A stretch of DNA of 60,311 nt from a virus. Below, piece by piece: positions 37,691-60,311 of this stretch (the stretch's first letter is position 1; the number at the start of each line of letters is the position of its first letter). Below the pieces are notes generated by a model. The model was not told where the DNA came from. It saw nothing but the letters and a program-made list of their open reading frames with translations, and searched no databases. The position numbers were made by a program, and so were the translations under genes. The DNA is taken from positions 1-60,311 of the IMG/VR virus record IMGVR_UViG_3300014348_000043; one strand, 5' to 3'.

Positions 37691-38209
37691 CTAGAGCTGA
37701 ATTGGTTCCTCAATTTTTATAAAAATGCTTCCTGTTGCCAGACTGTGACCAATTTTTGTTCGAGTCCCGGACTCAGGGACAGTAGAACTCGCAGACCCAC
37801 TCTCCGTCAAAAATAAAGATGCCGAGACCGGAAAAGAAAAAAATGGGTCGTCTAGTTTCCCGAAAAGTAAAACTCGTATGTTCTCATCTTCTTGGGCCGA
37901 AGAGATTGTAATCCCTATGACTACAGAGGATTCATATTGGGCAGAACTTGCGACAAGGACCTTCTCGTTTGGGCCCATGAAAACAAACTTTAAGGCAGAA
38001 ATAATTTCCCCCGCCGTAAATAGCGCCTCTAGTTTCTGAGCAGAGTCAGCAGTGCCCGCGCCCGGTATAAGAGAGGGGTCGATGTATCCGTCAGATCTAG
38101 TTTTTACGGGAGACTGGACCCCCGTGTTTGTGCTCTTAAAGTCAGAGGGGGTGTAGACTTCAATCTCGGTAGTCTGATTTTGTTGATTCTTTGTAAGAAC
38201 CTTTTGCAT
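37691..38209 (-). CDS. Fibre-like protein (172 aa)
   Basis: Contains RSDGYIDPSLIPGAG. The C-terminal half is similar in character to that of 37187..37681. Confidence 0.5.
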   Translation of the reverse strand: MQKVLTKNQQNQTTEIEVYTPSDFKSTNTGVQSPVKTRSDGYIDPSLIPGAGTADSAQKLEALFTAGEIISALKFVFMGPNEKVLVASSAQYESSVVIGITISSAQEDENIRVLLFGKLDDPFFSFPVSASLFLTESGSASSTVPESGTRTKIGHSLATGSIFIKIEEPIQL

Positions 38210-44559: not shown

Positions 44560-44820
44560 TTAGGAATTTGCGAGGTAAAGATGAAAAACAAACGGACCAT
44601 CGTCGTATGTTGTCAGGTAGGTTCGGCCAGGACCGATGTCGTGTCCAGTCCCGTAGAGACTGAAAGAATACTCTCGCATCACAGCTTCGGGGTCGACCTC
44701 TGCCCACAAAAATAAGTTTTCTTGCTGAAAGGAAACTCTCAAAAATTTCCAAGTCGCGGGGAGGATGATTGAAAAAGAAGAACGGCTTCTTGGGATTGGA
44801 TATTTGTAGACTCTTCTCAT
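44560..44820 (-). CDS. Conserved-looking small protein (86 aa)
   Basis: Its ATG overlaps the terminase stop as ATGA. Contains YKYPIP...LWAEVDP...LYGTGHDI. Confidence 0.65.
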   Translation of the reverse strand: MRRVYKYPIPRSRSSFSIILPATWKFLRVSFQQENLFLWAEVDPEAVMREYSFSLYGTGHDIGPGRTYLTTYDDGPFVFHLYLANS

Positions 44821-47567
44821 AGGCTTCGAATTCCTCTTTCCTCGTAAACAGAAGTTTCTCCCTCATCATTGATCCAGCCAGCAAGGGCCATAAGGATCGC
44901 AATGACAGGGTCAATTTTTAATTTCTCGTGGGACTTTCTCGGGAACACATTTCCGTTATGGTCTTCCTTGGCGACGACATTCCCCATACACCAGCGAAGA
45001 AGTGTCGAGCCATTGTGTTTGATTTTCCCCGAGCGGATCAAAGAGTCGAGCTTTTTCATGGGCTCAGAAAAATTAGAGACGTTCATTGCGACTTTGACCA
45101 TCTCCATTTTGTCGGAAAGTTTCTGCGCGGTCTCTGTCGCACTCCAGGCATCGTACATGCACTCGATAACTCGGTGATCCTTTGCGGCCTGGAGAAGTTC
45201 GCCTTGAATTTGTTCGTAGTTGATCGCCGCGCCTTTTGTCTGAATCAAAGACCCATCAGCCAGACAGTTCTCATAAAAAGGATTTTTCTTTTGCTTGATT
45301 GTGTCTTCGGGCAAGAAGCTTTTATCGAAAATGTAGTAAACATCTTTTTCTTTAAAGACGTAACCGATTGCCGTGATGTCGATGTGTGAGGCAAGATCGA
45401 GCCCGAGGCGGACAGATTTCCCTCGAAAGTCTTCAAGTTTTAATTTCGGGTCAGCGCAGGCGTCCCACATTTTTAAGTCGTAGAACGCATTGGCCTCGCT
45501 GATCCATTGATTCATGTGCTTGATGCGAATGTTTGGAATGTCCGAAGGAGTGACAAGAGCTTTCTCGACTTTCGTGCGAAGAGAGTCGATGTCGACCGAG
45601 ATCCCAAGATTTGGATTTGCCTTGATCCAAACATTCTCGTCCGCCCAGTCGTCCTCATCGTCGAGCGTGTAGACGGCAGAGAAGAAAGAATCGTTACTTA
45701 CTTCGCCCATCGCTACTTTTTTGGCGTACTGGGTCTGGAAAAATCCGACAGAGTTTGTGTCAGAGCCCGCAGTTGTAATACACATCAGCAGGGAGTCTTT
45801 TCGTTTCGACATGCCTGAATAGATGACTTCAAACACCGGGCGGCTCATGGCGTGAAGCTCGTCGCAAATTGCAAGGGCGTCTTTAAGGCCGTCCATGCCT
45901 CCGTGGTCCGCGCTCAAGGCCCGCATAAACGAGTTTGATTTTTTGTGAACGATGGTGTGGGCAAGGACTTCGACCCCAGTTGCTCGAAGGAACGAAGCGT
46001 TCTTTGAGGCCATGGCACGGGCCGAGTCCAAAACAATTCTTGCCTGCTCTCGTTTTGTTGCGACCGCAGAGATGTAGTTTCCGTTTGGATTGTCGAGAGC
46101 CAAAAAGTAGAGGCCCAGAATGGAAGCGATTGAGGAGTTGTGTGTCGGGACCATGTTCTCGCCGATGAGATAGCAGTGATCGGCAGAATCCACCTCAACA
46201 CAAAACATGGGAACTTTTTCTTTCAGCTTTTTGACGCCAACAATGTAGCGGCGGTTTGTGTAAGAGTGTTTCCCTCGTTTTTTTACTTGAAGAGATTTCT
46301 TTCTCTTGAAATTAAAAACAAACTCTTCGCCTCGCGGAGTAAACGCCACTTGCTTGAACAGAGTGTCTGATTTAAAATTATTTTTCTTTGAGACTTTGAA
46401 AGTATCTCTTGTCGGTTTGTACCCCAGCGAGCACAGAAGAATGAAAAGCCCATCAGCAAGTTTGTGGTTTGCATTTGTGAATTCTACTTGTCCGTTTGCT
46501 TTACTGATGTAGCCATCGGAGTCTAAAAGTCCACGTACAAGCTCAAGACGCTGCTGGATGCTGGCCGAAAAGTATTCTTTTGGAATATGTTTATTTTCCA
46601 GCAAGTCCGCTTTGCGAAGAACATCGACGAGGCCCATGACAGGAACAGCGGCTTTATTTCCTTTCGACCACAAGGTGCCAATTTTGTGTTTTCGTTTTTT
46701 CAGAAGCGACACAAGTTGTTTCTGATCTTTTGCGTGGCAATTGAGCCGAGGTCTTTTCCTGTCTCCGTTTCCCAGCCAATAGCCGAGCAAGTAGGGCTCG
46801 ACAGGCAAATTCTTTTTCTCCCCCTGAACGGGCTTGCACAGGTCGATGCTGTGGTTTGTCTCCTTGCCACCATAGGCGCGAAGGGATTTGGCAATTTCTT
46901 TTGTGGATCTCACGCCTTCGTAAATCTCTTTGCGGAGAGTTTTTTGCTGTGCGGCTTGTTTTCCATGACGCGCCTTGCGAACTCGTTCTTTTTTTGACGA
47001 CGTGGGCCATAAATGCTCCGCGCTGCACACCGTCGTCTCGCCGTCCGAGAAAGTTATCTCGTAGGCATCGAGGAATTGGGTCGGAGTCTTCGCCAAAACG
47101 ACACATTGGCCCCCAGTTCGATCAAAAAGTTTCGACCCTACCTCGACCTCCCCCCAAAGCTTCGGTCCGTCTGGGGTCATTACAGGAGTTTTGACGCAGT
47201 GCGCTTTGCCATTCCCTCTGGCGATCTCCAAATGCGCGGTGCGAAAACGCCGAAACCCGGTTTTCTTGTTTTTAAAACCCATGATGCACATGAACGCCCA
47301 GCACTGCCAGGGCTCGAAGACAATGTTCGGGGTGTTCCAGTGTCCTTCGACGTGCTGGAACCTTTGCGCGAGCTTTAGAAACTTTTCTGCCGCATCGGCG
47401 TCGAAATAAAAATTTTCTTCTTTCGCCTTGAGGTCCAGAAAATATCTTTCACATGCGGCGAAGATATATTTATTTGAAACGATTTTGCCGTCGACGATGT
47501 CTTGCGCGTAGGCGTGGCCCCGGACCACGTTCGGGTGTGTCGACTTGTTGAACTTCATCACGACCAC
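44817..47567 (-). CDS. terL: Terminase large subunit, interrupted by an intein (916-aa precursor, about 562 aa after splicing)
   Basis: The N-extein ends in the Walker A-like sequence LEIARGNGKAH. The C-extein has ICDELHAM (Walker B-like), TAGSD and a nuclease half. It is preceded by the small terminase. Confidence 0.9.
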   Translation of the reverse strand: MVVMKFNKSTHPNVVRGHAYAQDIVDGKIVSNKYIFAACERYFLDLKAKEENFYFDADAAEKFLKLAQRFQHVEGHWNTPNIVFEPWQCWAFMCIMGFKNKKTGFRRFRTAHLEIARGNGKAHCVKTPVMTPDGPKLWGEVEVGSKLFDRTGGQCVVLAKTPTQFLDAYEITFSDGETTVCSAEHLWPTSSKKERVRKARHGKQAAQQKTLRKEIYEGVRSTKEIAKSLRAYGGKETNHSIDLCKPVQGEKKNLPVEPYLLGYWLGNGDRKRPRLNCHAKDQKQLVSLLKKRKHKIGTLWSKGNKAAVPVMGLVDVLRKADLLENKHIPKEYFSASIQQRLELVRGLLDSDGYISKANGQVEFTNANHKLADGLFILLCSLGYKPTRDTFKVSKKNNFKSDTLFKQVAFTPRGEEFVFNFKRKKSLQVKKRGKHSYTNRRYIVGVKKLKEKVPMFCVEVDSADHCYLIGENMVPTHNSSIASILGLYFLALDNPNGNYISAVATKREQARIVLDSARAMASKNASFLRATGVEVLAHTIVHKKSNSFMRALSADHGGMDGLKDALAICDELHAMSRPVFEVIYSGMSKRKDSLLMCITTAGSDTNSVGFFQTQYAKKVAMGEVSNDSFFSAVYTLDDEDDWADENVWIKANPNLGISVDIDSLRTKVEKALVTPSDIPNIRIKHMNQWISEANAFYDLKMWDACADPKLKLEDFRGKSVRLGLDLASHIDITAIGYVFKEKDVYYIFDKSFLPEDTIKQKKNPFYENCLADGSLIQTKGAAINYEQIQGELLQAAKDHRVIECMYDAWSATETAQKLSDKMEMVKVAMNVSNFSEPMKKLDSLIRSGKIKHNGSTLLRWCMGNVVAKEDHNGNVFPRKSHEKLKIDPVIAILMALAGWINDEGETSVYEERGIRSL
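46137..47198 (-). mobile_element. Intein (354 aa) with LAGLIDADG homing endonuclease domain, in the terminase P-loop region
   Basis: It starts at Cys124 (CVKTPVMTPDG...). It has two LAGLIDADG blocks (LLGYWLGNGD and LVRGLLDSDGYIS). It ends ...VPTHN with Ser as the +1 residue (SSIASILGLYF). Codon positions were checked against the DNA: TGC at 47198..47196 and AAC at 46139..46137. Confidence 0.85.
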
Positions 47568-48145
47568 TCATCAACGTCGGAAGTCCCAGCCGGACCTGTT
47601 TTGTCTTTCTTCGGAAAGAGGTCCAAGTTTTTTGTGAGGTGCTGGATCTGGGCGCGAACTTTATCTCGCTGCGTGACTTCCGGGAAAAGTCTTCGGTGCT
47701 CGCCCGCGACAGTGACAACCTTGAACGACATTCCGTTCATGCGGATAAATTTATTCAGCTCCTCGAGTTCGACGTAGAGGTCACAAAGAATTTCGAGCGT
47801 GTGGAGATGTCCGGGCTTGAAGTTATCTCGCTCGGTGACATTGTCGATGAAGCTCATCCAGGTTTTTCGGAACGTGGGCTCTTTTCTCGGGGGAGGGTAG
47901 CGGTGATTTGTAAACTCATCTTCGGGGTCAGGAAGAATTTCTTCTTTGTCGGGAACTGGGGCCGGGTAGACGTGCTTGCCAGACTTGCCGTCTCGCAAAT
48001 GTCTGCTGTCGTTTTCGTTGGACCGAATCACAGTCCCGTCCGCAAGAGTGATCTTGCGGGTCGACTTTCGGCCTTTAGAGATCTTCGGCTTCTTTTCGGA
48101 TGCGGTCTCTTCCACGGGAGACTCCGCGATTTTCTTTTTCTTCAT
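47558..48145 (-). CDS. terS: Terminase small subunit (P27-family-like)
   Basis: The C-terminal half (HLHTLEILCDLYVELEELNKFIRMNGMSF...LFPEVTQRDKVRAQIQHLTKNLDLFP) resembles P27-type TerS. It lies directly upstream of terL. Confidence 0.65.
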   Translation of the reverse strand: MKKKKIAESPVEETASEKKPKISKGRKSTRKITLADGTVIRSNENDSRHLRDGKSGKHVYPAPVPDKEEILPDPEDEFTNHRYPPPRKEPTFRKTWMSFIDNVTERDNFKPGHLHTLEILCDLYVELEELNKFIRMNGMSFKVVTVAGEHRRLFPEVTQRDKVRAQIQHLTKNLDLFPKKDKTGPAGTSDVDEWS

Positions 48146-49916
48146 GGTGCTTTCCCCGTTGTTCTTTTAGCTTTCGCCATTGGAACATTGACACACCGAC
48201 CGGGCGCTTTTCAAGCTTTGTCTTTTCGGGTCGGGGTTTGGGGGCCGGGCTGTCGTCGGCTTCTTTCTGGATTTCTTCGATTTCTTTTTCGCCGCCCAGC
48301 ATTTCGATGAGGGGATTGCTTCCCTGTTCGTACATACCGCCAATTGGGTAGATCCAGAAATCGTAGGTCGCCGATTTTAAAACATCCTCGGTCTTAAAAA
48401 TTTTCTTTCCTGACAAGTCGCAGTAATTATCAAAAAAGGCTTTTACGGTGAGCGGGTCTCGGTAGTCCTTGGACTCGAGCGTCTTGCGGCGGCGAAGACC
48501 TTCCTCGACCTTCGACCACAAGAAAGCTTTTTGTTTTGCATCCCAGCCAGGCGAAGGACCAAGACGGCTCTTGGTCGTAAGCTCGGCGACGACACTCTTC
48601 TGCCAGCGACTCATCGAGGCGTGGGCAAGCTCCCAGAACTTCGGGCCCTGGTATTCCAGGTTGAGCCACTTCCAATTTTTCTTGGGATATCTTTGCGGGC
48701 AGTATTTTTTGCCGACAGTCAGAATCCATTTTGCGATTTGGGCAACATAGGCGGGGTCGAACTCGGCGTGTTTCTCGTCCAGCTTTTCAGACATGCGGGC
48801 AATTTCACCCGGAGTCATTTTCTTGGAGTCCTTGAGCGAGCGGCTTCCAAGAACAAGCGGAGCAAACTTTCGAGAGTTAAACAAAATGTAGTTGTCTCGC
48901 GGGTAGTTGTTCGAAATCACCATGCTGCAATAGATCTGACTGCTGTTCGTCGCATCGACACCTTTGCGCTCGATTGAGATCGAGTCGTTCTGGTATTCCT
49001 TCATGCGAGGTTCCATTTCATGATTGTAGGAAAGCTCATCGAACCACACGAGAGTTTTATTTTCGACTTGGCTGTTGAACTTACTTTGATTCGCGCCAAG
49101 AGTTTCTTTCTTACCATCAGCGGAATTCGAAACACCGTGAAGGGCCTGAAGCAAAAGCTTTAGCCTGTTCTTCCCGACACCAGGCACACCCTGGAGCACG
49201 AGGTACACATAGGCTCTTGATGTGATCGAAGTGTAAACCCACGCGTAAAAATAATTTCTCTCTTCCCGGATTGGGATCAGGTGTTTGAGAAGTTTGATGA
49301 CTTCGGCTGGCGGGCTGGCCGGAAGGGCGTCCCACTTTTCGGGGTTGTTCTTTTTCCAGTACCACCACGACGGCTGGATGTACTCGTTGAAAAAGGAGTA
49401 CTGGTGGACTTTGTCTTGCCCGAGACCAACATGAACACCCGGTGGCTTCCTGGGCATGTACTTTGGGACCACAGCCCTTGCAAGGCTGTGATACTCTGCG
49501 CTCGAAAGATTTGAGGTTTTAATAAAATGGGCCCCAGATACTTCCACAACTCGTCGCTCATCTCCCTGCGAGGAGCAGAAATAGTTTTCGATGTTGCTTG
49601 TCGGCTTTGTCATGTCCACGTTGAGAATCAAGTGGGACAGCTCCGGCGGCAGACTGGCAAACTTTGGCGCAGAATTTACCTGAAGTGAGCTGAAATACTC
49701 TTGAAACAATTCCCCCACTGCGTCCTGCCCACTTCCCAGAAGCGACACGGCGTCAGCATGTTTGGAAAGATTCGGCCCCAGACGCCGAACAAGTTCGGAC
49801 ACAAAGGCGGGGAGAGTGATCGGGGAGCCATCAAGTGTTATGCACCGAGCTTTGTCCGGGCTGTACTTTCTAACTTGCATCCCAGCGGCATCCAAAGCCG
49901 CTTTCAGTTTTGACAT
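48075..49916 (-). CDS. SF3 (P4/D5-like) replicative helicase with an uncharacterised N-terminal domain
   Basis: Walker A (VLQGVPGVGKN), Walker B (LVWFDELS) and motif C-like sequence (MVISNNYP). It lies next to the iteron region. Confidence 0.65.
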   Translation of the reverse strand: MSKLKAALDAAGMQVRKYSPDKARCITLDGSPITLPAFVSELVRRLGPNLSKHADAVSLLGSGQDAVGELFQEYFSSLQVNSAPKFASLPPELSHLILNVDMTKPTSNIENYFCSSQGDERRVVEVSGAHFIKTSNLSSAEYHSLARAVVPKYMPRKPPGVHVGLGQDKVHQYSFFNEYIQPSWWYWKKNNPEKWDALPASPPAEVIKLLKHLIPIREERNYFYAWVYTSITSRAYVYLVLQGVPGVGKNRLKLLLQALHGVSNSADGKKETLGANQSKFNSQVENKTLVWFDELSYNHEMEPRMKEYQNDSISIERKGVDATNSSQIYCSMVISNNYPRDNYILFNSRKFAPLVLGSRSLKDSKKMTPGEIARMSEKLDEKHAEFDPAYVAQIAKWILTVGKKYCPQRYPKKNWKWLNLEYQGPKFWELAHASMSRWQKSVVAELTTKSRLGPSPGWDAKQKAFLWSKVEEGLRRRKTLESKDYRDPLTVKAFFDNYCDLSGKKIFKTEDVLKSATYDFWIYPIGGMYEQGSNPLIEMLGGEKEIEEIQKEADDSPAPKPRPEKTKLEKRPVGVSMFQWRKLKEQRGKHHEEKENRGVSRGRDRIRKEAEDL

Positions 49917-49973
49917 GGGTGAAACCTTTTCTTTTGTTGAAAATTCTTGTTGCTACCTAAAACTGGCAAAAGT

Positions 49974-49987
49974 AAGTTGTCAACAAC
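49974..49987 (-). promoter_or_regulatory. Conserved promoter/operator-like motif (copy 2, GTTGTTGACAACTT)
   Basis: The minus strand reads GTTGTTGACAACTT about 60 nt upstream of the helicase ATG. Confidence 0.5.
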
Positions 49988-50059
49988 ACCCGGCCCAAAT
50001 CGTAAAAAATTCTTATGTTTTGCTTTCAACACCTTTTCTAAAAATTGGGCCGGGTGTTG
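49984..50059. repeat. 15-bp perfect inverted repeat (CAACACCCGGCCCAA / TTGGGCCGGGTGTTG) around a 46-bp AT-rich spacer
   Basis: The arms are at 49984-49998 and 50045-50059. The left arm abuts the promoter-like motif. Confidence 0.8.
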
Positions 50060-50078
50060 CTTTTCAAAACCGCCGAAA

Positions 50079-50405
50079 ACACCACTAAACAAAATCTTGT
50101 AGAAATCCCTATTCTATTATTCGATTAGCAAATTCTCGAAACGCCACCCCTATGTCAGCGCGAAGAAAAATATACTAATAGGGATATAATGGTACGGGAA
50201 AACACGATTTTCGATAATAAGTTGTTTGTTTAGTGGTTTAAGTTGTTGAAATTGCTGGCCAAGTACCTTGTCGTAAACTGAGAGTTGTTTGTTTTAGTGG
50301 TGTCGATTTCTTAGTTAAGTGCTGGAAATCACAACAGATTTGGCTATAAACAAAAAGGTTTTAGTCGTTGTTTTATTTGCTGGTAAGACTCTTGACAAGA
50401 GTCTT
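50079..50405. promoter_or_regulatory. Iteron-like repeat cluster, AT-rich segment and palindromes (candidate replication origin / early control region)
   Basis: Direct repeats GTTGTTTGTTT(T)AGTGGT...TGCTGG lie at 50221-50258 and 50284-50325, with a shorter third copy at 50357-50383 and an inverted copy at 50079-50095. There is an inverted repeat ATCCCTATT/AATAGGGAT (50105-50113 / 50178-50186) and a 9-bp-arm palindrome AAGACTCTT-GAC-AAGAGTCTT (50385-50405). Confidence 0.45.
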
Positions 50406-50657
50406 CCATATTTTCAGAAATTTGTCAACCAAAAATCGTCTGAAAAAAAGGAGATAAAACCTAAGGAGAATTGACCTTAATCCTAAAAATGTCAATTTCC
50501 TGAAAAACCTGAAAATGCGTTTAATTCGATTTGGGCTTTTGCAAAAATGAGACTTTTTTTCAAATTTTGACGTTTAAAAACAGGGAAGTCGCGTTTTTCC
50601 GAGATTTTACTTAAGTTTTGATTTTCAAAAAACTCCGTCAAACCTCATTAAACCGCT

Positions 50658-50963
50658 TTAAAGGTTTTTGTCGTGGGTCTCATCTTTTGGCGGTTTTTGC
50701 CGAAATTGCTCAAAATATTCGTAAATGTTGGGCGCAAAAGGGCGCACAGAAAGTCGCTGACAGGCCTCAAAAAATTGCGGGTCGATCTTACATTTTAGCC
50801 TCAATTTTGCTCGCCGAAATGCTTTGAGTTTTGTCTCGTCCGAGGCCTGCACAATCATCCCAGAATCCAAAATAATTTCACAAGTGAAGTAGAATTTTTT
50901 GGAGCTTTCAGCGAGGCGCACACTTCCGTTTTTGAGCTTGAATATCCTGTCAGGAGTTCTCAT
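50658..50963 (-). CDS. Paralog family member 5 (101 aa)
   Basis: ATG 50963 overlaps the upstream stop as ATGA. Sequence: MRTPDRIFKLKNGSVRLAESSKKFYFTCEIILDSG...TKLKAFRRAKLRLKCK. Confidence 0.75.
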   Translation of the reverse strand: MRTPDRIFKLKNGSVRLAESSKKFYFTCEIILDSGMIVQASDETKLKAFRRAKLRLKCKIDPQFFEACQRLSVRPFAPNIYEYFEQFRQKPPKDETHDKNL

Positions 50964-51268
50964 CTCGTCATCTTCTTGTAGAGTTCGTGGGGATCTTGGA
51001 GGCCGGGCTCGCCAGTCATTTTTCTGTAGGCCCTGGCGAAAGCGGGGTCTTGCTTCATCTTGATTTTTATGCGGACTCTTCGAAAGGCCTGAAGCTTTGT
51101 CTCTCCCCACTCAGTGTAGAGTTCCCCGTCGATGTATGCTTTGCATTTGATGTATATCTCCTGCCTGGTGAGGAGGAAAAAAGACTCCTCTCTCCAGAAA
51201 TGGATGTAGTCGCCATTCTTTAAATAAAAGCTTCTATGTGGGGCTGTCCTCGGCTGTCTCTTTTTCAC
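50960..51268 (-). CDS. Paralog family member 4 (102 aa)
   Basis: GTG 51268 overlaps the upstream stop as GTGA. Sequence: ...RSFYLKNGDYIHFWREESFFLL...TKLQAFRRVRIKIKMK. Confidence 0.75.
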   Translation of the reverse strand: MKKRQPRTAPHRSFYLKNGDYIHFWREESFFLLTRQEIYIKCKAYIDGELYTEWGETKLQAFRRVRIKIKMKQDPAFARAYRKMTGEPGLQDPHELYKKMTR

Positions 51269-51543
51269 CAGTCTATTCCTCTCTGAGATCTTGCTAGCCT
51301 TCTTGCCACAAACTCTGCTTTAAGCTTTTGTTTGTCTCTATACTTTAGCTTTGCAATTTTAAATGCCTCGAGACCGCTGAAATCAGACACACAGTAAGTT
51401 CTGTCCCCATTGATACTGATTACGCACCTATAGTGAGGAATAGTCCTGGGAGTAAAAGGGATCTCCACAGAGCCGCCGCAGGATAGCTGGAAGAACCTGC
51501 TTCGCCTTCTTCGTTTCCATTTTGGAATTTTATTTGATTTCAT
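51265..51543 (-). CDS. Paralog family member 3 (92 aa)
   Basis: ATG 51543. Sequence: ...SRFFQLSCGGSVEIPF...YRCVISINGD...GLEAFKIAKLKYR. Confidence 0.7.
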   Translation of the reverse strand: MKSNKIPKWKRRRRSRFFQLSCGGSVEIPFTPRTIPHYRCVISINGDRTYCVSDFSGLEAFKIAKLKYRDKQKLKAEFVARRLARSQRGIDW

Positions 51544-51850
51544 CAATCATCCAATCAAGCTCGATTTTTAGCAGCGCTTTTAGACGTGTTGTTTTTAGGT
51601 ATCTCCAATATCGGTAGGCTTTTCTCGCATCTTTAATAGCCACTTTAAGGCTAGAGCCTGTGTGGCCTCCCCGCTCATATCCGTCCGTAAAAATAACGCG
51701 ATAGTAGTATTGTTCAGTAGCCTCCAGCCAGATAAACAAAGCATACCCATCGTGATTTAGTCTGATATACCGATCATCTTTTTCTTTAAACTTATCATTG
51801 GAGATTTTATCTTTCCCCTTTGAGGGGCGCTTTCTTTTATTTTCTGTCAT
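51530..51850 (-). CDS. Paralog family member 2 (106 aa)
   Basis: ATGA overlap at 51847-51850. Sequence: ...DRYIRLNHDGYALFIWLEATEQYYYRVIFTDG...LKVAIKDARKAYRYWRYLK. Confidence 0.75.
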   Translation of the reverse strand: MTENKRKRPSKGKDKISNDKFKEKDDRYIRLNHDGYALFIWLEATEQYYYRVIFTDGYERGGHTGSSLKVAIKDARKAYRYWRYLKTTRLKALLKIELDWMIDEIK

Positions 51851-52095
51851 TGCGACTGCCCTTCTGATCTAGTTTTTATTCTGGCGGCCAGGCGCATTGC
51901 TTTTAGTTCTTTCCAGTGGCGGTAAACCCTGACTGCGTCTTTGAGGGCCGCCCGGGCGCTGTGGCCTGAAATTCCATTCCACATTGTTCCGCCCAGAACA
52001 AAAGCGCAGAAGTAGTCCTGATGCCGCTCGCGCCAAGTGATTTGAACGAAGCCATCGTCCGCCAATTTAAAATGCCGATCTCTTCTGGGTTTCAT
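51847..52095 (-). CDS. Paralog family member 1 (82 aa)
   Basis: Sequence: MKPRRDRHFKLADDGFVQITWRERHQDYFCAFVLGG...ARAALKDAVRVYRHWKELK. There is no SD, but an extended -10 lies 7 nt upstream of the ATG. Confidence 0.75.
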   Translation of the reverse strand: MKPRRDRHFKLADDGFVQITWRERHQDYFCAFVLGGTMWNGISGHSARAALKDAVRVYRHWKELKAMRLAARIKTRSEGQSQ

Positions 52096-52102
52096 GTGGA
52101 AG

Positions 52103-52111
52103 ATTCTAGCA
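52103..52111 (-). promoter_or_regulatory. Extended -10 element TGCTAGAAT, 7 nt upstream of ATG 52095 (possible leaderless transcript)
   Basis: The minus strand reads ...aagTGcTAGAATcttccacATG. No Shine-Dalgarno sequence lies between, and no good -35 is present. Confidence 0.35.
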
Positions 52112-52170
52112 CTTGCCGAAAGTTTACGGAACTTGCAGAAAACTAATTGTAAATTTGAAATCCTATTTAA

Positions 52171-52538
52171 TTGAGAATGAGTCTCATTTGCAATAAGAAA
52201 GCTTTTAAATCGAATAAACCCAGGACAATCTAGTTGAGAATAGGTCTCATGTAGAGTTGATTGCGACTCGATGCGCGACTCGAAACGAAGTTGTTTACCA
52301 CCTCCCCCTGGGTCGAGGCTATAAACAATATAGCCTTTATGGCTTCACAAGCAATGTGCTTGAGGTGATACACTATGTGTTGTCTATTAGCTCGAAGGGC
52401 CTATATTGCAGAATATAGTTGGCCATAATTGTCACTGTCTCAAGGTTAAACAGAACACTGTTATTCTCATTTTGAGACGGTGTAGAACTTCTAGGCAGGA
52501 TTGTAGAATCTCAATTTGAGACGTTTTATTTTGAGGCG
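52171..52538. promoter_or_regulatory. Left operator cluster (TGAGA/TCTCA palindromes)
   Basis: TTGAGAATGAGTCTCAT at 52171-52187; TTGAGAATAGGTCTCAT at 52234-52250; TTCTCATTTTGAGACG at 52464-52479; ATCTCAATTTGAGACG at 52508-52523; a partial TTTTGAGGCG ending at 52538; ATTGTCACTG at 52428-52437. Further hairpins: GGCTATA-aacaa-TATAGCC (52318-52336) and CTATATT-gcag-AATATAG. Confidence 0.55.
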
Positions 52539-52542
52539 TCGT

Positions 52543-52587
52543 GGTCGGGTGCCATGGTCGGGTGCCATGGTCGGGTGCCATGGTCGG
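52543..52587. repeat. Tandem repeat, 3.5 copies of the 13-mer GGTCGGGTGCCAT
   Basis: Exact copies at 52543-52555, 52556-52568 and 52569-52581, then a partial GGTCGG at 52582-52587. It lies immediately downstream (minus sense) of the terminator. Confidence 0.9.
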
Positions 52588-52623
52588 AAAAGAAAAACGC
52601 CTAGCTTTTCAGGCTAGGCGTTT
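52586..52623 (-). terminator. Rho-independent terminator
   Basis: The minus strand reads AAACGCCUAGC-CUGAAAA-GCUAGGCGUUU followed by UUCUUUUCC. It begins about 22 nt after the stop of ORF 52645..52818. Confidence 0.8.
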
Positions 52624-52644
52624 CATGGAATTATTTTTTCAGGT

Positions 52645-52818
52645 CTATTTTTGTTTCATCAGGTCTTCTAGGAAATCACGGACTAATTTTGAAAGATTGA
52701 GTCTGTTTTTCTCCAGAAAATCTTGATGTCTTTGGTACAGCAAGACGGACCTAGTTAGCTTGTCTTCGTCTTGCTTTGTTTCGCCCTTTCGGTACTTTTC
52801 AAGGTCTTGTTTTTTCAC
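52645..52818 (-). CDS. Ribbon-helix-helix-like small protein (57 aa, below the ORF-track cutoff)
   Basis: Starts at GTG 52818. The sequence VKKQDLEKYRKGETKQDEDKLTRSVLLYQRHQDFLEKNRLNLSKLVRDFLEDLMKQK fits a strand-helix-helix pattern (RSVLLYQ / HQDFLEK / LSKLVRDFLEDL). The SD is weak. Confidence 0.45.
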   Translation of the reverse strand: MKKQDLEKYRKGETKQDEDKLTRSVLLYQRHQDFLEKNRLNLSKLVRDFLEDLMKQK

Positions 52819-53040: not shown

Positions 53041-54501
53041 TTAATCAATGTCGCCTTGAATTGTGAAGTTAGAAACTGTCGTGTTGGGGACTACAGTCCA
53101 AAGTCTTAACTCAAACGACTCCGCGATATAAAAATGAGATTTAGGGGTCAATTCTTTCTCAATGATTTTTGGGTTTTTAGCATCGTATCTATTTTCTTCT
53201 TCAAAAATCTTCCCGCCTAAACAAAGGGGCGCGTGCTCCCGTCCGGTATGCTCGACAACCCCACAAGCAAGGCCATTGAGGGATGCATCTTCGTGGTTTC
53301 GAACGATATACAAGGTATTAGGGCGTCCTTTGCCATGGGCTATTTGAGACCGGACCGCGCACAATTTTTCTTTAGTCTCGTCAGATTCCCATGTATGGAC
53401 TTGGTCCTTGTCTAGTTTCAAAGTCTTGCCGGAATCAATGAAAAACCACTCACCTTGCCTTAGGACCTCAACTCCGTTTTTCATCGCCGTCTTGACTGAT
53501 TCGGGAATCATTGACTCATACGCTTCTGCGATTGATTTTGCGTCCTTTGAGACCTCGCAGAAAAACGGGTTCCAGATACCGTGCTCGACCTCACGTCGAT
53601 CTAGGTCCATTAAAAACTTGCGCCCTGAATTCTCAAGAAGCATGGCCCCGGTGAAATGCATTTCTTGGCCCCCAATGGTGAAATCTTCCTCGGGTCCTTG
53701 TTCAACCACTTTCGTCTCAGCTAGTTTGAGTCCAGCCGATGCTAAAACATTCAAAGGCACTGAAAGACTGGAAGCTTCTCGAACTAGCTTTTGAACGATT
53801 GACTGGCCGCCTAGGACTTTCGACTCAAAATCAGAGCAGTTCAGCCTTTGTGAATTCAATACAATTTTGCCCTCAGAGGTCTTGAACGCGACTAGTGTCT
53901 CACCTAAATATATCTCAGAGCTACTGATTCGGTACTGATCGACTTTGGCCGTCTTGCCTTTGCCTGCTAGGAATACCTCGACCGCGCTCTTATATGAGTT
54001 GAAAGTCTCTTCAGGATTGAAACCTTTCCCTTTGTTCAAAGGCTTAGTTTCATCATCATAATGATTTTTGCATTTTTCGAACTTGAGTCCAGACCCTTCG
54101 AGGTCTGATAGCCTAGGATTAAGTCCTAGTTTTTTTGCTTCAGCCTTCAGTTTCAAAATCTTGTTTGTCTTTTCTTGCATGGCCGCGAGATTCGCAAGGT
54201 CTGAGATATCCTCGGCGTTCGTCTCAAAAATAGTCGCGCCGATGACTCTTAGAATTAAACTAACACAATCATAAATATAATGCCCGGATCGATCCCCTGA
54301 AGATCCCGATCCCCAGCCGCCAGTTGAATAATATGGGCGCTTCCGGATGACCCAGCCTTGTTTCGTCTCAGAATAGAACCCGTGGATATTCTCAAGGTCT
54401 TGTTCGTCGTGAATGATTCCTAGATCATAGGCCAGCGCGAGGTGGAACCCGCCTGAACGCGCTTTTAAAACATTCTGAATAGTGTTGTATTTAATTCCCA
54501 T
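53041..54501 (-). CDS. Orphan protein (486 aa), function unknown
   Basis: ATG 54501 has a strong AAGGGAG 7 nt upstream; the ORF-track start is 54543. The C-terminal part (LRQGEWFFIDSG...IAHGKGRPN...GVVEHTGREHAPLCLG...LWTVVPNTTVSNF) loosely resembles the RQGDV...GH.H...HEEH small-barrel family seen in phages. Confidence 0.7.
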   Translation of the reverse strand: MGIKYNTIQNVLKARSGGFHLALAYDLGIIHDEQDLENIHGFYSETKQGWVIRKRPYYSTGGWGSGSSGDRSGHYIYDCVSLILRVIGATIFETNAEDISDLANLAAMQEKTNKILKLKAEAKKLGLNPRLSDLEGSGLKFEKCKNHYDDETKPLNKGKGFNPEETFNSYKSAVEVFLAGKGKTAKVDQYRISSSEIYLGETLVAFKTSEGKIVLNSQRLNCSDFESKVLGGQSIVQKLVREASSLSVPLNVLASAGLKLAETKVVEQGPEEDFTIGGQEMHFTGAMLLENSGRKFLMDLDRREVEHGIWNPFFCEVSKDAKSIAEAYESMIPESVKTAMKNGVEVLRQGEWFFIDSGKTLKLDKDQVHTWESDETKEKLCAVRSQIAHGKGRPNTLYIVRNHEDASLNGLACGVVEHTGREHAPLCLGGKIFEEENRYDAKNPKIIEKELTPKSHFYIAESFELRLWTVVPNTTVSNFTIQGDID

Positions 54502-54681
54502 TTTGATCTCCCTTGTTTGTTTTTGAAAAACACTTGTCCTCAAGAGACCTTAGTTCAAATGTTATGCCATGCTATTTTAATAGCATTTTAAAACAGTCCT
54601 AAGCACTAGATGCCATCACCTCAAACCTATAGGATCTAAACATGCGCCCATCTATTAATAGGCGCGGCGAGAAGAGCTGCG

Positions 54682-54769
54682 TTCTCATTTTGAGGCGTAG
54701 AACTTGCATACAAAGTGACGTGGATTGTCACTGAGACATGTCTCAATCAAAGACTGCGCCAGTGACAAT
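54682..54769. promoter_or_regulatory. Right operator cluster (same motif family as 52171-52538)
   Basis: TTCTCATTTTGAGGCG-TAGAACTT at 54682-54705, matching TTCTCATTTTGAGACGGTGTAGAACTT at 52464-52490. A 14-bp perfect palindrome TGAGACATGTCTCA at 54732-54745 is nested in a 10-bp inverted repeat ATTGTCACTG/CAGTGACAAT (54724-54733 / 54760-54769). Confidence 0.55.
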
Positions 54770-55349: not shown

Positions 55350-55448
55350 CTAGGCATTGCGACAGATTTCTAGGAACTCAAACCAGTCAATCAGTCCGAG
55401 CTTTAAGGCCCGGACTGCGTTTAGGATTTTAAGATCTGACTCGCTCAT
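55350..55448 (-). CDS. Possible micro-ORF (32 aa)
   Basis: Its ATG overlaps the vWA gene stop as ATGA. Translation: MSESDLKILNAVRALKLGLIDWFEFLEICRNA. Confidence 0.3.
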   Translation of the reverse strand: MSESDLKILNAVRALKLGLIDWFEFLEICRNA

Positions 55449-56608
55449 TTCTCTTCTCCGAACTCCAGCACTTCCCCGAACGGAACTTTTGTGTAGCCAG
55501 GCAGGAGCCCATCCGGCACGGCCCAGAGGACCGGAACCCCGGGCGTATTCCCGAAGCTGTCGCAAACGAGATCCGTCAGCATGACAACGGCAATCGGCGG
55601 CTCTTGCGCCTCGGAGATATGCTGAAACACCGGAGCGAAATCTGTTCCGCCTCCGCCGCGAGGGTTTAGAACTACGTCATCGTCTTCGCCGAAGACTTGA
55701 ACGTCCAGAACCTCACTGTCGAAATAAACAACTTCAATTTCCTTCGGCAAAAGATCTTGTTTGATGCCGTTAATTTCGGCTGCGAAAACATTTAGCATGT
55801 GCCTGTCAACGCTTCCCGAGCAGTCAACACCGATGGCTACTTTCCCCATTTTCTGCCCAGATAAAGACGGCAAAATTAAATCACTGTGCAGGAATCTTCT
55901 TTTCGGTCTTGCGTAGGAGTAATCTGTTTTTGCTTTCTCAGATAAAAAGTTTTTAAGAACTTCTTTCCAGTCAACTTGCGGAGCTAGGACTTCATCCAAA
56001 AGTCGTTCGAGGTTTGAAGAGAGCTTCCCTTGCATCTTGGCTGCGTTCTTTGCGGCGATGACTCTAACTTTTATCTGTGCAGATTTTTCGGCCATCTTGG
56101 CTTCATCTGTTTGTCCTTCGCCGTTGTCGGAGCCAGCGTCGTGAACATCATCCATGGCACCGCCAGGAGTTCCCGCCCCGTTTTTCTCAGCGCCTTCAGG
56201 TAAAAGCTTGTAGACACCTTCTGCGGTCCCGCCGCCCTCTTTTACAAGATGGGGATTTAAAAGTCCCCCGACTGGCATCGAGCCGATTTTCTCTTTCACG
56301 AGCAAGTCGTTAATGACATAGTCAGCGGCCTGGTTCCATTTGTTGTGGTTTCTTCCCGCCCGGCGGCCCATGTGGTCGAACATACAGTGAAGGGCCTCAT
56401 GTGCCAGAACAAAAGTCGTCTCAGCCAGAGTGAGCCTCTCAGTCCACCCTGGATTAATTTTAATTGTCTCGCCGTCTGTTGCCATTGTGGGAACATCTTC
56501 AGCATAGCGAAGCGGCATTGGCAGCAAGATAGAGGCAAAGAACGGGTGGTCTAAAATCAGCCCAGCCCGTGCTTTTGTTACTTTGTCGAACTTAACAGGA
56601 ATGCTCAT
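55445..56608 (-). CDS. vWA domain protein with N-terminal HExxH metallopeptidase-like domain (DUF2201-like)
   Basis: Contains FVLAHEALHCMFDH (HExxH) and a MIDAS-like motif (IGVDCSGSV). Confidence 0.7.
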   Translation of the reverse strand: MSIPVKFDKVTKARAGLILDHPFFASILLPMPLRYAEDVPTMATDGETIKINPGWTERLTLAETTFVLAHEALHCMFDHMGRRAGRNHNKWNQAADYVINDLLVKEKIGSMPVGGLLNPHLVKEGGGTAEGVYKLLPEGAEKNGAGTPGGAMDDVHDAGSDNGEGQTDEAKMAEKSAQIKVRVIAAKNAAKMQGKLSSNLERLLDEVLAPQVDWKEVLKNFLSEKAKTDYSYARPKRRFLHSDLILPSLSGQKMGKVAIGVDCSGSVDRHMLNVFAAEINGIKQDLLPKEIEVVYFDSEVLDVQVFGEDDDVVLNPRGGGGTDFAPVFQHISEAQEPPIAVVMLTDLVCDSFGNTPGVPVLWAVPDGLLPGYTKVPFGEVLEFGEEK

Positions 56609-57465
56609 TATTTTCTCCCCATAAAAGCGCCCATCTTAGCTTCGATGTCTGAAAGAGCTTTGCTGGCGACATCTCGCTTTTTGGAGTCCTGCCGGATTTC
56701 TTTTACGTCAATTTCGCCAACTAGCTCAGACACTTCTTTTCTGATCTTCTCGAGCTGCGAGCTGTCCGAGACATTGAGCATCGGCAAAAGGCTGACCATT
56801 TCTTTGATGTTCTCGATCAAGTTGTCGCGGAAAATAGCATCGGGCTTTTTTAGTTTCTCAGCCGCGTTTTTAACGACAGTGTGAAGGCGATTGAAGCACT
56901 CTTGCGTGGCTTTTAGTTCTGTTTCTTTCATCTTTGCGATGAATGCCTTTTTCTCAGCGTCAGAGATTTCTGTGCGGAAATCTTTTACGTCGGGAAGTGG
57001 CAGGAAAGAGACCTCAAGGCTGAATTTTGAAGAGATGTCTTCGGGATATTCTTCGGCGTCGTAAAGCTCTCCGAGTTTTTGGACCGCTTCGGCTTTAAGT
57101 TTTGGGTAGGCCGCGACGAAGGCTTTTACTGAGGACTCGAACTCAGCTTTTATCTTCTGCATTTCTCCAGCAAACCTTAAATAGTTCTTTCCTGAGATGA
57201 TTCTGCTTCCGTCATTCATCCAAGGAAGTGTTTGTTCGTAGAAGTAGGTTCTAGCCTGGCTAGCCAGAGCTGAAATATTTGAAAGCTCCTCGGCTCCTGG
57301 CAAGAGCGCCTTGTGGTAGCGCCCGGCTTGCTGGCTTGCTTTGTGGGCGACATTTGCCGTTTCTGTTGCCTTTTTGTCGATCTTGCGGCCCGACCATTGA
57401 CTGATCGACACCACGACGAGAAGGGCTTTTTCGGAGAGTGATTTTTTGGCTTTAATCTTTTTCAT
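56608..57465 (-). CDS. DUF3150-like protein (285 aa)
   Basis: Contains LLVVVSISQWSGRKIDKKATE... and is helical overall. It lies between the AAA ATPase and vWA genes, as this family usually does. Assigned from memory. Confidence 0.45.
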   Translation of the reverse strand: MKKIKAKKSLSEKALLVVVSISQWSGRKIDKKATETANVAHKASQQAGRYHKALLPGAEELSNISALASQARTYFYEQTLPWMNDGSRIISGKNYLRFAGEMQKIKAEFESSVKAFVAAYPKLKAEAVQKLGELYDAEEYPEDISSKFSLEVSFLPLPDVKDFRTEISDAEKKAFIAKMKETELKATQECFNRLHTVVKNAAEKLKKPDAIFRDNLIENIKEMVSLLPMLNVSDSSQLEKIRKEVSELVGEIDVKEIRQDSKKRDVASKALSDIEAKMGAFMGRK

Positions 57466-57479
57466 TTTTTGGCTCCTAT

Positions 57480-58484
57480 TTAGTTGAAAAGTGCAGCGCC
57501 TTCTTTGGACGCCCAGTCGATGAATGCTTTTGTTGTTGCGATGTCAGGGCATTTTGCCATGGCGTCTTTGATGTAAAGAGCCGAGAACTCCGGCGGCATT
57601 CTTTTGATGTAGGTCAGAGCCCGGTCAAAAGTTCCTGATGTGGTTCGCGCCACAAGAGCCCCGCAAAGGGCGTAAAGAGTTGCCGGGTCACTCGGGACTT
57701 CTTCTTTCTTGGGGTTCAGCATGATGCGGTCGGGATTTGGCATAGATTTAAACACCTTCAGAAAGGCCATGAACTCGCTGGCAGGGCCTTCGCCTACGTC
57801 CCCTGTGAAGGTCTCAAACTCGGCTTCTGTGACGCCAAGGGAAGCAGAAACGCCCTCAACCCACGCCCGGGGAGTTGCATTGACATCCTGCCGTGCGTTG
57901 TAATTGCTGAGAAGCTCGGGACGAAATCGGATGAAAGCGATGACTTCGGTTTTAACGCCGTTATTGATGGCCCACTGCGTCCAGTCGTCAAGGCTGGCCT
58001 CAAGAGCCACGCGGGTCATTCGGTTTGCCAGATGGCCTAAAATACGGTTTGCGCCAGCTCTGTCGGCCTGGGTGTTTCCTGTGGCGACAATGCTCCAGCC
58101 GGACTTTAGGCGCTTTCCGTGGATTTCACGCTCTTGAATGAGGTTCGCCAGGACTTTTTGGGCCGAGTTATCGGCCTGGGAAAGCTCATCAATAAGAAAG
58201 ATCCCGCTTTCGGGGGTGTTTTTACAGCCCTCGAGCGGGAACTTGTCCTGAGACACGACAAAGATTAGCTCGTCGCGGTTTTTGCCAGTTAAAGTTGGCA
58301 GACCATAGTCTTCTGGCTGAAGCAGAGGAGCATGGATGGCCTTAAAGCCAATGCCAAGCTCCTGGGCCGCCTGGGCAGCGATTTGGGTCTTGCCAAGACC
58401 TGGCGAGGATTCGACCATCAAGGTGCGCTTGATGCCTGCTGTGTGCCGGGACTTGATCTCTTGTTTTAGTTTCGAGGGATTCAT
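57480..58484 (-). CDS. MoxR/CobS-like AAA+ ATPase
   Basis: Walker A (ESSPGLGKTQIA), Walker B (IFLIDELSQA) and the sensor region (IVATGN). 334 aa. Confidence 0.8.
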   Translation of the reverse strand: MNPSKLKQEIKSRHTAGIKRTLMVESSPGLGKTQIAAQAAQELGIGFKAIHAPLLQPEDYGLPTLTGKNRDELIFVVSQDKFPLEGCKNTPESGIFLIDELSQADNSAQKVLANLIQEREIHGKRLKSGWSIVATGNTQADRAGANRILGHLANRMTRVALEASLDDWTQWAINNGVKTEVIAFIRFRPELLSNYNARQDVNATPRAWVEGVSASLGVTEAEFETFTGDVGEGPASEFMAFLKVFKSMPNPDRIMLNPKKEEVPSDPATLYALCGALVARTTSGTFDRALTYIKRMPPEFSALYIKDAMAKCPDIATTKAFIDWASKEGAALFN

Positions 58485-60069: not shown

Positions 60070-60271
60070 ATCTGGCCTCAATTTCTCGTTTTAGTTTTGC
60101 ATTTTCTTCTTCAAGCTTTTTTATCTTTTGCGACAAAATAACATAGGCGGCGATGAATCCAATTTCTGCCCCATCCTCGGGAGTTTCTGGGACAATGTCA
60201 AACACCCTTCCTTTTTGGCAGAGGGCCTCTCGCACCATTCTTTTCAGTGTTTCTAGGGTTTCTTTATCCAT
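60062..60271 (-). CDS. Small coiled-coil protein (69 aa), spans the terminal repeat
   Basis: ATG 60271 has GAGGAG upstream. The C-terminus is a heptad-like stretch (KIKKLEEENAKLKREIEA). Its first 58 codons are duplicated at 1..174. Confidence 0.7.
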   Translation of the reverse strand: MDKETLETLKRMVREALCQKGRVFDIVPETPEDGAEIGFIAAYVILSQKIKKLEEENAKLKREIEARYD

Positions 60272-60311
60272 GTCTCCTCAATTTCCATCCGTTGTATGTT
60301 TTATAGAAAAC
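60098..60311. repeat. Direct terminal repeat, right copy
   Basis: Identical to 1-214. Confidence 0.95.

Follow-up and report, generated by a model that had tools for sequence, protein, structure and literature searches.

Five tandem paralogs of a small, strongly basic orphan protein family in a variable slot of a viral genome, with a possible role in nucleic-acid binding

The window considered here, i.e. the whole stretch of 60,311 nucleotides of viral DNA that was analysed, harbored five consecutive open reading frames (ORFs) of 82, 106, 92, 102 and 101 aa, running from 52095 to 50658 on the minus strand, which they share with virtually all genes of the window. They are referred to below as p1 to p5:

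51847 to 52095, minus strand: p1, 82 aa, first gene of the array, ATG start without SD
51530 to 51850, minus strand: p2, 106 aa, ATG start, long K/R-rich N-terminal tail
51265 to 51543, minus strand: p3, 92 aa, ATG start
50960 to 51268, minus strand: p4, 102 aa, GTG start
50658 to 50963, minus strand: p5, 101 aa, ATG start

The coordinates given in the original prediction were correct; the strand is the minus strand, so the genes read from higher to lower positions. Junctions were read from the sequence. The chaining by ATGA or GTGA overlaps that had been claimed for the array was encountered at p1/p2 (ATGA), p3/p4 (GTGA) and p4/p5 (ATGA); it did not apply to p2/p3, which displayed a 14-nt overlap. 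An alternative TTG start at 51546 would give p3 a length of 93 aa, and p5 would reach 150 aa from a GTG at 51110 that is out of register.

The operator-rich region lies at higher coordinates and, the array genes being on the minus strand, is upstream of them in the direction of transcription, as had been predicted. It displayed the following features:

52103 to 52111, minus strand: extended -10 motif TGcTAGAAT, read from the sequence, with no SD between the motif and the p1 ATG
52096 to 52640, minus strand: upstream regulatory region with palindromes, a second candidate promoter and islands conserved with sister phage L010
52542 to 52587, no strand assigned: perfect 13-nt tandem repeat (3.5 copies), between the upstream terminator and the operators
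52594 to 52624, minus strand: intrinsic-terminator-like hairpin with a 12-bp stem and a T run, closing the upstream operon
52645 to 52818, minus strand: gene of a 57-aa probable ribbon-helix-helix (RHH) regulator, just upstream of the array region

The extended -10 and the lack of an SD, both part of the original prediction, were verified: TGcTAGAAT (52111-52103) ends 7 nt before the p1 ATG at 52095. A clear SD was seen in about half of the other genes of the window. The motif was not listed by a promoter consensus scan because a -35 is absent; if this promoter is used, it implies that the p1 mRNA is leaderless or near-leaderless. A second candidate promoter, TTGCAA-N17-TTAAAT (52196-52168), holds a palindrome in its spacer. 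Palindromes of the type TGAGA-N5-TCTCA were located at 52172 and 52235 and those of the type TCTCA-N3-TGAGA at 52465 and 52509, and half-sites numbered nine in the upstream region for 1.4 expected. Since the upstream operon is closed by the terminator-like hairpin, a separate promoter region serves the array. The L006 homolog of the 57-aa protein displayed a CcdA match (E=0.0011) below the Pfam cut-off.

On the other side, the array directly precedes a helicase-like, terminase and structural block:

49917 to 50657, minus strand: AT-rich (38% GC) non-coding region with iteron-like repeats, downstream of p5
48075 to 49916, minus strand: gene of a 613-aa DUF5906 protein, D5-type SF3 helicase-like, a conserved neighbour followed by TerS and TerL

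The motif AACAACTTAAACCACT of the downstream region was also found upstream of DUF5906 in L015, a phage without array, and the region is thus attributed to the DUF5906 gene and not to the array. No repeated motif or site of the flanking DNA repeats could be assigned to p1-p5: the upstream repeats are better explained by the adjacent RHH-like protein and the downstream repeats by the DUF5906 initiator. Scans for Rfam families and tRNAs returned no matches in the window or in L010.

The five ORFs were predicted to be paralogs, and this was confirmed by blastp/phmmer, Smith-Waterman and hhalign comparisons, all of which placed their similarity well beyond chance. Expectation values were 1.5e-15 for p1-p2 (35% identity across 74 aa), 2e-8 for p1-p3, 3e-5 for p3-p5 and 2e-12 for p4-p5. 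The corresponding Smith-Waterman z scores, based on 2000 shuffles, were 21.6, 12.2, 6.5 and 18.3, and in none of these pairs was the observed score equalled by any of the shuffles. Pairwise similarity between p1/p2 and p4/p5 was not significant; p3 is the bridging member, linked to p1 (z=12.2) as well as to p5 (z=6.5). Aligned as profiles, (p1,p2,p3) and (p4,p5) matched with P=4e-4 across 58 columns that stay in register all the way from the R.F.L motif to the helix. Divergence is considerable: in the family alignment, identity was at most 31%, paralogs were at 35% identity or less and saturated, and close orthologs were lacking.

The alignments bore out the common plan described for the family, namely a basic N-terminus, R-x-F-x-L-x-x-G, an aromatic beta segment and [KR]-A-[FLV]-[KR]-x-x-[KR]. 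Counted from the invariant Ala of the helix, positions A+2 and A+5 were K or R in nearly all members, and core positions were hydrophobic. All 13 family members were basic. Those of the window displayed pI values of 9.6-10.8 and net charges of +8 to +16, with a net charge per residue at or near the 90th percentile of the genome; about one quarter of the ORFs of this genome likewise have a high pI. Proteins of the family range in length over 78-178 aa and stand alone, without recombinase catalytic domain or HNH fusion.

The original prediction did not recognise the family, and neither did the databases: Pfam, PHROGs, NCBIfam, PADLOC, PDB sequences and GenBank phages yielded no match. In PHROGs nothing appeared below E=0.09, and the best PADLOC score (E=0.0049, SduA, with one of the 13 members) was judged spurious. 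Three family consensus sequences found no match in the libraries. Among 50,697 GenBank phages, no match was obtained by tblastn of p1 and p5 or by blastn of the region. When 5.8 billion proteins were searched through a word index, using three profiles in succession, only the window's own proteins, the two proteins of L002 and one L004/L010 member were retrieved, each of which had also been reached by other routes. HMMER, run over all of 1.84 billion representative proteins, added a single outside homolog, P0007, which is followed by overlapping paralogs and itself lies in a tandem array. Two further HMMER matches, P0006 and P0008 (about 1,276 aa; E=3e-15 and 9e-5), were rejected as spurious sums of four to nine weak beta-hairpin matches; both are long repeat proteins, P0006 being FN3-like by eye. 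Pattern scans of IMG/VR with the family alignments found no relatives, or the alignments offered no conserved stretch fit for such a scan, and scans of genome contigs found no prophage relatives.

Sister phages were gathered by way of the neighbouring DUF5906 helicase-like gene, whose products are about 50% identical. Variation in copy number, which the original prediction had suggested looking for, was evident in the slot upstream of this gene: five copies in the window, four in L004/L010, and at least one in each of L003 and L005. L013 had one borderline candidate, which a profile picked up at E=0.0027 in a set of 14 sequences and which pairwise comparisons did not support. No copy was present in L006, L014 and L015; these three kept the DUF5906, TerS and TerL block, and the array-free slot was filled by a metallophosphoesterase together with a C92 amidase. 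An array was available a second time only for L004 versus L010/L011/L012, with identical proteins. Among clearly scoring members, all those that could be compared with a paralog (p1-p5, L004a and L004c) had their best partner among the paralogs of the same genome. The family diverges far more than the adjacent DUF5906 protein: in cross-genome phmmer comparisons array members reached at most 19 bits, against 110-113 bits at the level of identity of the DUF5906 neighbours. Because copy number in the slot varies and best matches are found within the same genome, the array appears to be an accessory module undergoing lineage-specific expansion.

AlphaFold (AF2) monomer models of the distant paralogs p1 and p5 displayed the same beta4-alpha topology, i.e. 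four predicted beta-strands followed by a basic amphipathic helix. In the p1 model (pLDDT 78) strands span residues 7-11, 15-22, 27-34 and 37-43 and the helix residues 47-80. In that of p5 (pLDDT 77, pTM 0.62) strands span 6-10, 13-19, 26-32 and 37-42 and helices 45-60, 62-70 and 80-88. Foldseek returned no significant match with these models (best PDB E=0.15-0.29, best BFVD E=0.024). Nucleic-acid binders were prominent among its higher-probability analogues, including PUR-alpha repeats, the dsRBDs of ADAR2, RDE-4 and DHX9 (rmsd 1.9-2.6 over about 50 columns), Sub1/PC4, Whirly and an AP2/ERF protein of BFVD. Since Foldseek was not significant and profile comparisons stayed at background, the analogy of the predicted fold rests on a very common small topology.

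PUR repeats, which belong to a Whirly-like class together with PC4/Sub1 and Whirly, resemble the predicted domain in having four antiparallel strands and then a helix (AF2 prediction, pLDDT about 77); they are likewise small and contain many aromatic and basic residues, and they are known to bind nucleic acids. PUR-alpha repeats were among the best PDB matches of both models (prob up to 0.94). They work in pairs, two repeats intertwining into one functional domain, an arrangement that would suit co-translated paralogs. Differences are a Foldseek E of 0.23 or worse, an rmsd of 4.4-5.9 A, a TM of about 0.4, no match to Pfam PurA (PF04845) and a far more basic helix in the array family. Homology to PUR repeats, considered from Foldseek and a look-alike motif R-F-Y-L-D/K-x-N/G, was rejected: hhalign against five real repeats gave P=0.16-0.65, equal to the reversed control.

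AP2/ERF and integrase arm-type domains share with the models a beta-sheet with a helix packed on it. The AP2/ERF protein of phage phT4A in BFVD superposed with an rmsd of 1.6 A over 50 columns (E=0.41). An AP2 domain has a three-stranded sheet packed on one helix, and the models of p1 and p5 have four strands; Pfam gave no match to AP2/ERF (PF00847), and the top 50 Foldseek matches included no arm or AP2 structure from the PDB. AP2/ERF homology was discarded after hhalign against five plant domains (AtERF1, ERF096, both domains of WRI1, and TEM1; P=0.2-0.5, background). The idea of an arm domain arose from a weak Pfam match of p2 and a '...A-R...DP' pattern seen by eye. This match to Arm-DNA-bind_3 (PF13356) had a sensible register (E=0.18, 12.4 bits, for a gathering score of 27 bits) and concerned one of the 13 members and none of the three consensus sequences. 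Integrase arms are N-terminal domains of tyrosine recombinases, whereas the array proteins stand alone. A P4-type arm domain was rejected by hhalign against five real domains from E. coli K-12 and phage P4, the N-termini of IntS, IntA, IntZ, IntB and P4 Int (Prob 0.1-0.2%, P=0.33-0.52).

With dsRBDs, the beta-beta-beta-alpha part superposes (ADAR2, 1.9 A over 49 columns, prob 0.97; RDE-4, 2.6 A over 54 columns). A dsRBD begins with an alpha-helix, whereas in the array-family models a beta-strand comes first and the N-terminus lacks a helix; Foldseek E was 0.3 or worse and no sequence match was found. The best structural matches overall were uncharacterised small phage proteins of BFVD (56-99 aa, E=0.024-0.16, TM up to 0.6), such as A0A8S5SMS5, A0A2P9J4X2 of Pectobacterium phage CB4 and G8EY50 of Synechococcus phage S-CAM8, which have no detectable sequence relationship to the array family. 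None of these analogues is characterised, and none is known to occur in tandem arrays.

Several readings of the array were weighed. That the ORFs are not genes, and that the family was produced by faulty ORF calling or by the recent duplication of a non-coding segment, would draw on the lack of database homologs and on nothing further. The paralogy statistics and the sister-phage copies effectively refute this reading; likeness is at the protein level, with one residual 28-nt repeat only in the DNA, at least five further contigs carry the family with its register preserved, and the shared strand, stop/start overlaps and confident AF2 models add to this. It seems very improbable that the products are internal or DNA-condensing proteins made with the packaging genes, entering the capsid with the DNA and injected. 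Their small size and very basic nature would suit such a role, as would the DUF5906, TerS, TerL, portal and capsid block that follows immediately in the same orientation, no convincing terminator intervening; yet sister phages with the same structural module lack them, their N-termini share no capsid-targeting or protease-site motif in the family alignment, and the array has its own operator-rich promoter.

An unlikely, though more serious, candidate role is that of sequence-specific DNA-binding regulators (AP2/arm-like) directed at the phage itself. Acting on the upstream operators or on the downstream iteron-like repeats, they would autoregulate, switch on the helicase/terminase/structural operon or assist the origin. 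The array is indeed flanked by two repeat-rich non-coding regions, and the p1 promoter, in which a -35 is missing and palindromes stand at about -70 and -130, is built in a way known from promoters that depend on an activator; the BFVD AP2/ERF analogue and the register-consistent arm match of p2 would agree with this. The same block is retained without the array in L006, L014 and L015, however, the downstream motif occurs in array-free L015, hhalign against real arm and AP2 domains was at background, and the RHH-like protein is a more obvious binder of the upstream repeats. Just as doubtful is an arsenal for counter-defence or host takeover by protein-protein inhibition, in which each paralog would target a different host factor or defence variant and nucleic-acid binding would not be involved. 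It is favoured by the variable accessory slot, the lineage-specific duplication, a divergence much faster than that of the neighbours, the position of the array as the first genes behind a strongly regulated promoter, and the other accessory enzymes found in this slot in array-free relatives. Similarity to known systems was nevertheless absent from PADLOC, PHROGs and Pfam. Among the small inhibitors that have been characterised, many mimic nucleic acids and are acidic or neutral, unlike the array proteins, which are uniformly very basic with conserved K/R.

The best explanation as a whole, which we hold tentatively and at somewhat less than an even chance, is that of nucleic-acid-binding accessory proteins from a co-transcribed operon of diverged small-domain copies. 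The five genes would form one largely translationally coupled transcription unit, each encoding a diverged copy of one domain of about 60-70 residues. This domain is predicted to combine an aromatic-rich four-stranded antiparallel beta-meander with an amphipathic helix presenting conserved Lys/Arg on its exposed face, and would usually be preceded by a K/R-rich tail. We infer that the proteins bind nucleic acid, most likely DNA, probably as homo- or heterodimers; strongly basic character and structural analogues point to this activity and not to a known anti-defence family. Counting against it are the lack of significant Foldseek matches, profile comparisons at background, a high pI that many other ORFs of the genome share, and flanking repeats that are better attributed to other proteins. 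The module is located in a variable slot, with the gene of the small RHH-type regulator on one side and the helicase-like/terminase block on the other. It would not belong to core replication or packaging, since sister phages do without it, and more likely modulates transactions of host or phage nucleic acids in a manner specific to the host. The role in counter-defence or host takeover initially proposed for the array is plausible. A more specific version seems rather improbable: the paralogs might co-assemble, as PUR-like paired beta4-alpha units or as a larger hetero-oligomer, into a complex that binds nucleic acid and belongs to a fold family not described before, with subunit number (0 to 5) tuned by lineage-specific duplication; this complex would for instance coat or remodel DNA or RNA, or shield it from host defences that target nucleic acids.

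Orphan small-gene arrays are common in phage accessory regions, and the present evidence overturns nothing. One outside homolog among so many representative proteins indicates that the small-protein space of uncultivated phages is barely covered. If the preferred reading is true, the array would represent a new clade-restricted family of small nucleic-acid-binding proteins, amplified and diversified in a hypervariable slot. Host-specific functions such as counter-defence, host shut-off and regulation tend to reside in such modules, and the family would then be a compact candidate for expression screens.

The window was a complete phage genome, with an exact 214-nt direct repeat at its two ends (1-214 = 60098-60311) and a unique sequence of about 60,097 bp; the genome is thus either circularly closed or bounded by direct terminal repeats. 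Nearly all genes lay on the minus strand, with those for replication (DNA polymerase, exonuclease, helicase and ligase) at 6-15 kb. The five consecutive ORFs of the original prediction were confirmed from the sequence:

51847-52095, minus strand: p1, 82 aa
51530-51850, minus strand: p2, 106 aa
51265-51543, minus strand: p3, 92 aa
50960-51268, minus strand: p4, 102 aa, GTG start
50658-50963, minus strand: p5, 101 aa
52111-52103, minus strand: extended -10 (TGcTAGAAT), ending 7 nt ahead of the ATG of p1

That description was accurate, except that the strand had been left unstated and that chaining by ATGA or GTGA held at three junctions only (ATGA at p1/p2 and p4/p5, GTGA at p3/p4), the p2/p3 junction being a 14-nt overlap. 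The first gene indeed displayed an extended -10, and neither a Shine-Dalgarno sequence nor an upstream in-frame start was found for it; about half of the other genes displayed an obvious Shine-Dalgarno sequence.

Sequence comparison identified p1 to p5 as true paralogs. Blastp/phmmer comparisons linked p1-p2 (E=1.5e-15), p1-p3 (E=2e-8), p3-p5 (E=3e-5) and p4-p5 (E=2e-12); the corresponding Smith-Waterman z-scores were 21.6, 12.2, 6.5 and 18.3, and none of 2000 shuffles matched the observed score of any of these pairs. No significant pairwise similarity was found between p1/p2 and p4/p5, which were bridged by p3. Alignment of (p1, p2, p3) with (p4, p5) by hhalign, a check proposed with the original prediction, was significant, at P=4e-4 with 58 columns aligned in full register, and paralogy therefore stands. 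Across all six reading frames of the window, the family HMM matched these five ORFs and no sixth member. All five were basic, with pI values of 9.6-10.8, net charges of +8 to +16 and a net charge per residue at or near the 90th percentile of the genome.

The family had been described as unrecognised, and this was borne out. Thirteen members and the family consensus sequences gave nothing significant in Pfam, PHROGs, NCBIfam or PADLOC; profile searches of PDB sequences returned noise only, and tblastn against GenBank phages gave no match. When 1.84 billion representative proteins were scanned in full with HMMER, one convincing homolog emerged besides the five queries themselves: P0007 (98 aa, E=2e-5). 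This protein is encoded on a 601-bp metagenome contig displaying the same tandem organisation: a second member (78 aa) lies 1 nt away, and a third ORF, which opens M-E-S-I-R-R-S-F-S-L-Q-G, starts before this second one has ended. Two repeat proteins of about 1,276 aa from the same scan were regarded as spurious, their scores being sums of many weak beta-hairpin matches.

AlphaFold2 monomer models, also proposed as a check, gave p1 (pLDDT 78) and p5 (pLDDT 77, pTM 0.62) the same predicted beta4-alpha topology, in which a helix comes after four antiparallel strands. This helix was unbroken in p1; in p5 a conserved D-P interrupted it, and another short helix came next. Only Met1 and one alanine in the first helix turn were invariant, while the F/L neighbouring this alanine and the strand aromatics were conserved. 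Positions A+2 and A+5 were Lys/Arg in almost all members, which predicts that the helix is amphipathic and exposes a strongly basic face. Foldseek found nothing significant in PDB (best E=0.15-0.29) or BFVD (best E=0.024). Recurrent analogues, prominent among the higher-probability matches, were small nucleic-acid-binding modules (PUR-alpha repeats, dsRBDs, Sub1/PC4, Whirly and an AP2/ERF phage protein), none of them significant. With real sequences of each family, membership was unsupported by hhalign for the P4-type integrase arm domain (P=0.33-0.52; E. coli K-12 and phage P4 sequences), the PUR repeat (P=0.16-0.65, equal to the reversed control, with sequences confirmed against PDB entries) and the AP2 domain (P=0.2-0.5). 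With these domains the family shares a common small topology at most.

Because the array proteins had diverged too far to serve as seeds for collection scans, sister phages were sought in metagenomes and IMG/VR through the conserved downstream neighbour, a 613-aa DUF5906 (D5-type helicase-like) protein, whose relatives at 39-56 % identity mark them. Contigs L004, L010, L011 and L012 represented one phage with four overlapping members (134-178 aa) upstream of the DUF5906 gene. L003 and L005 displayed at least one member each in the equivalent slot before the short contigs end. L013 carried one borderline, very divergent candidate following the family plan by eye (profile E=0.75 against the full set of six-frame ORFs, or 0.0027 in a set of 14 sequences; best pairwise phmmer score only 7.7 bits). 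No member was found in this slot in L006, L014 and L015, which carried other accessory genes there, including a calcineurin-like phosphoesterase and a C92 amidase. The slot was conserved, with zero to five copies. Where scores were clearly above noise and a paralog was in view, the best partner came from the same genome (p1-p2, 44 bits; p4-p5, 35 bits; L004a-L004c, 33 bits), and no cross-genome pair exceeded 25 bits. DUF5906 neighbours shared about 50 % identity, against at most 31 % for array members of different phages. Taken together, own-genome partners, variable slot content and low cross-phage identity indicate a fast-evolving accessory module, duplicated within genomes and independently in each lineage.

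In four sister contigs (L003 508-792, L004 2614-3060, L005 495-809, L013 8738-9304), the array was joined by a small protein whose N-terminus is hydrophobic and lipoprotein-like and whose C-terminus bears a conserved motif (...SDD/E-T/I-I-V/I...G+), located between array and DUF5906 or, in L013, ahead of the single member. The window encoded no counterpart of it. Seven related contigs, each assembled independently (L001, L004, L010, L014, L016, L017, L019), start inside the DUF5906 gene or at most 4 kb upstream, which suggests either that the genome physically ends here or that a repeat or hypervariable region breaks the assembly.

Upstream of p1, the preceding operon ended with a gene for a 57-aa probable ribbon-helix-helix (RHH) protein. 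Toward p1 followed a hairpin, a tandem repeat and four palindromes of TGAGA/TCTCA half-sites (nine half-sites versus 1.4 expected), together with several non-coding islands conserved in L010:

Upstream of p1: terminator-like hairpin closing the preceding operon
52542-52587: perfect 13-nt tandem repeat TGGTCGGGTGCCA, 3.5 copies, directly after the strong terminator and the RHH-like gene
52172-52186, 52235-52249, 52465-52477 and 52509-52521: operator-like palindromes with TGAGA/TCTCA half-sites
About 52270-52420, minus strand (L010, about 260-480): conserved islands

The palindromes came in two geometries, inverted with N5 and everted with N3, and one fills the 17-nt spacer of a promoter-like TTGCAA...TTAAAT (52196-52168, minus strand). 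A further operator-like copy, TGAGACATGTCTCA (54732-54745), lay 2.5 kb off. At the equivalent place, exactly at its contig start, L010 carried different 8-nt and 13-nt tandem repeats (1-30 and 56-97). The islands, kept between phages whose proteins share only about 50 % identity, comprised TATATTCTGC(A/G)ATATAG, itself palindromic; CCCAGGGGGAGGTGG, a G-rich box that resembles an anti-SD and is not followed by a start codon; and TATTCGATTTAAAA. They had no Rfam match; they may represent regulatory sites or else a small RNA.

Between p5 and the DUF5906 gene, a 740-nt AT-rich (38 % GC) non-coding stretch with iteron-like repeats (49917-50657) is a candidate origin or initiator-binding region. It contained ACCACTAAA(A)CAAACAACT three times, twice in direct and once in inverted orientation, as well as a 26-nt inverted repeat (49984-50009/50034-50059) and a perfect palindrome with a 9-bp stem (50385-50405). 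Its motif AACAACTTAAACCACT recurred upstream of DUF5906 in L015 (9600-9700), which has no array, indicating that the region goes with the helicase-like gene and not with the array.

Elsewhere, the 916-aa large terminase (44817-47567, minus strand) had its ATPase domain broken at about residues 130-476 by a LAGLIDADG/Hom_end homing-endonuclease-like insert, hence probably an intein; the L010 terminase (562 aa) lacked it. A 638-aa tail-fibre-like gene with collagen repeats (38209-40125) contained a 144-nt tandem duplication (77 % identity, 39728-40021) in its 5' part. Upstream of the array region, a MoxR-like AAA ATPase formed a trio with a DUF3150-like protein and a DUF2201 VWA/metallopeptidase (55445-58484, minus strand). 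A 500-aa protein (53041-54543) had no match in Pfam, PHROGs or IMG/VR.

As to function, we tentatively propose, at somewhat under even confidence for the whole, that the proteins would use the basic face of the helix, together with the aromatic and basic sheet, to bind nucleic acid, that coupling would deliver the paralogs together, possibly as pairs, and that they would serve an accessory role tuned to the host and not a core one. The counter-defence or host-takeover role originally suggested fits the evolutionary pattern of the array and had no direct support. Regulation of the phage's own DNA by these proteins was weakened as an explanation because sister phages do without the array.

The array is a genuine sequence-orphan family, yet as it stands one more orphan accessory gene family; it would be no surprise to specialists and is worth an expression screen.
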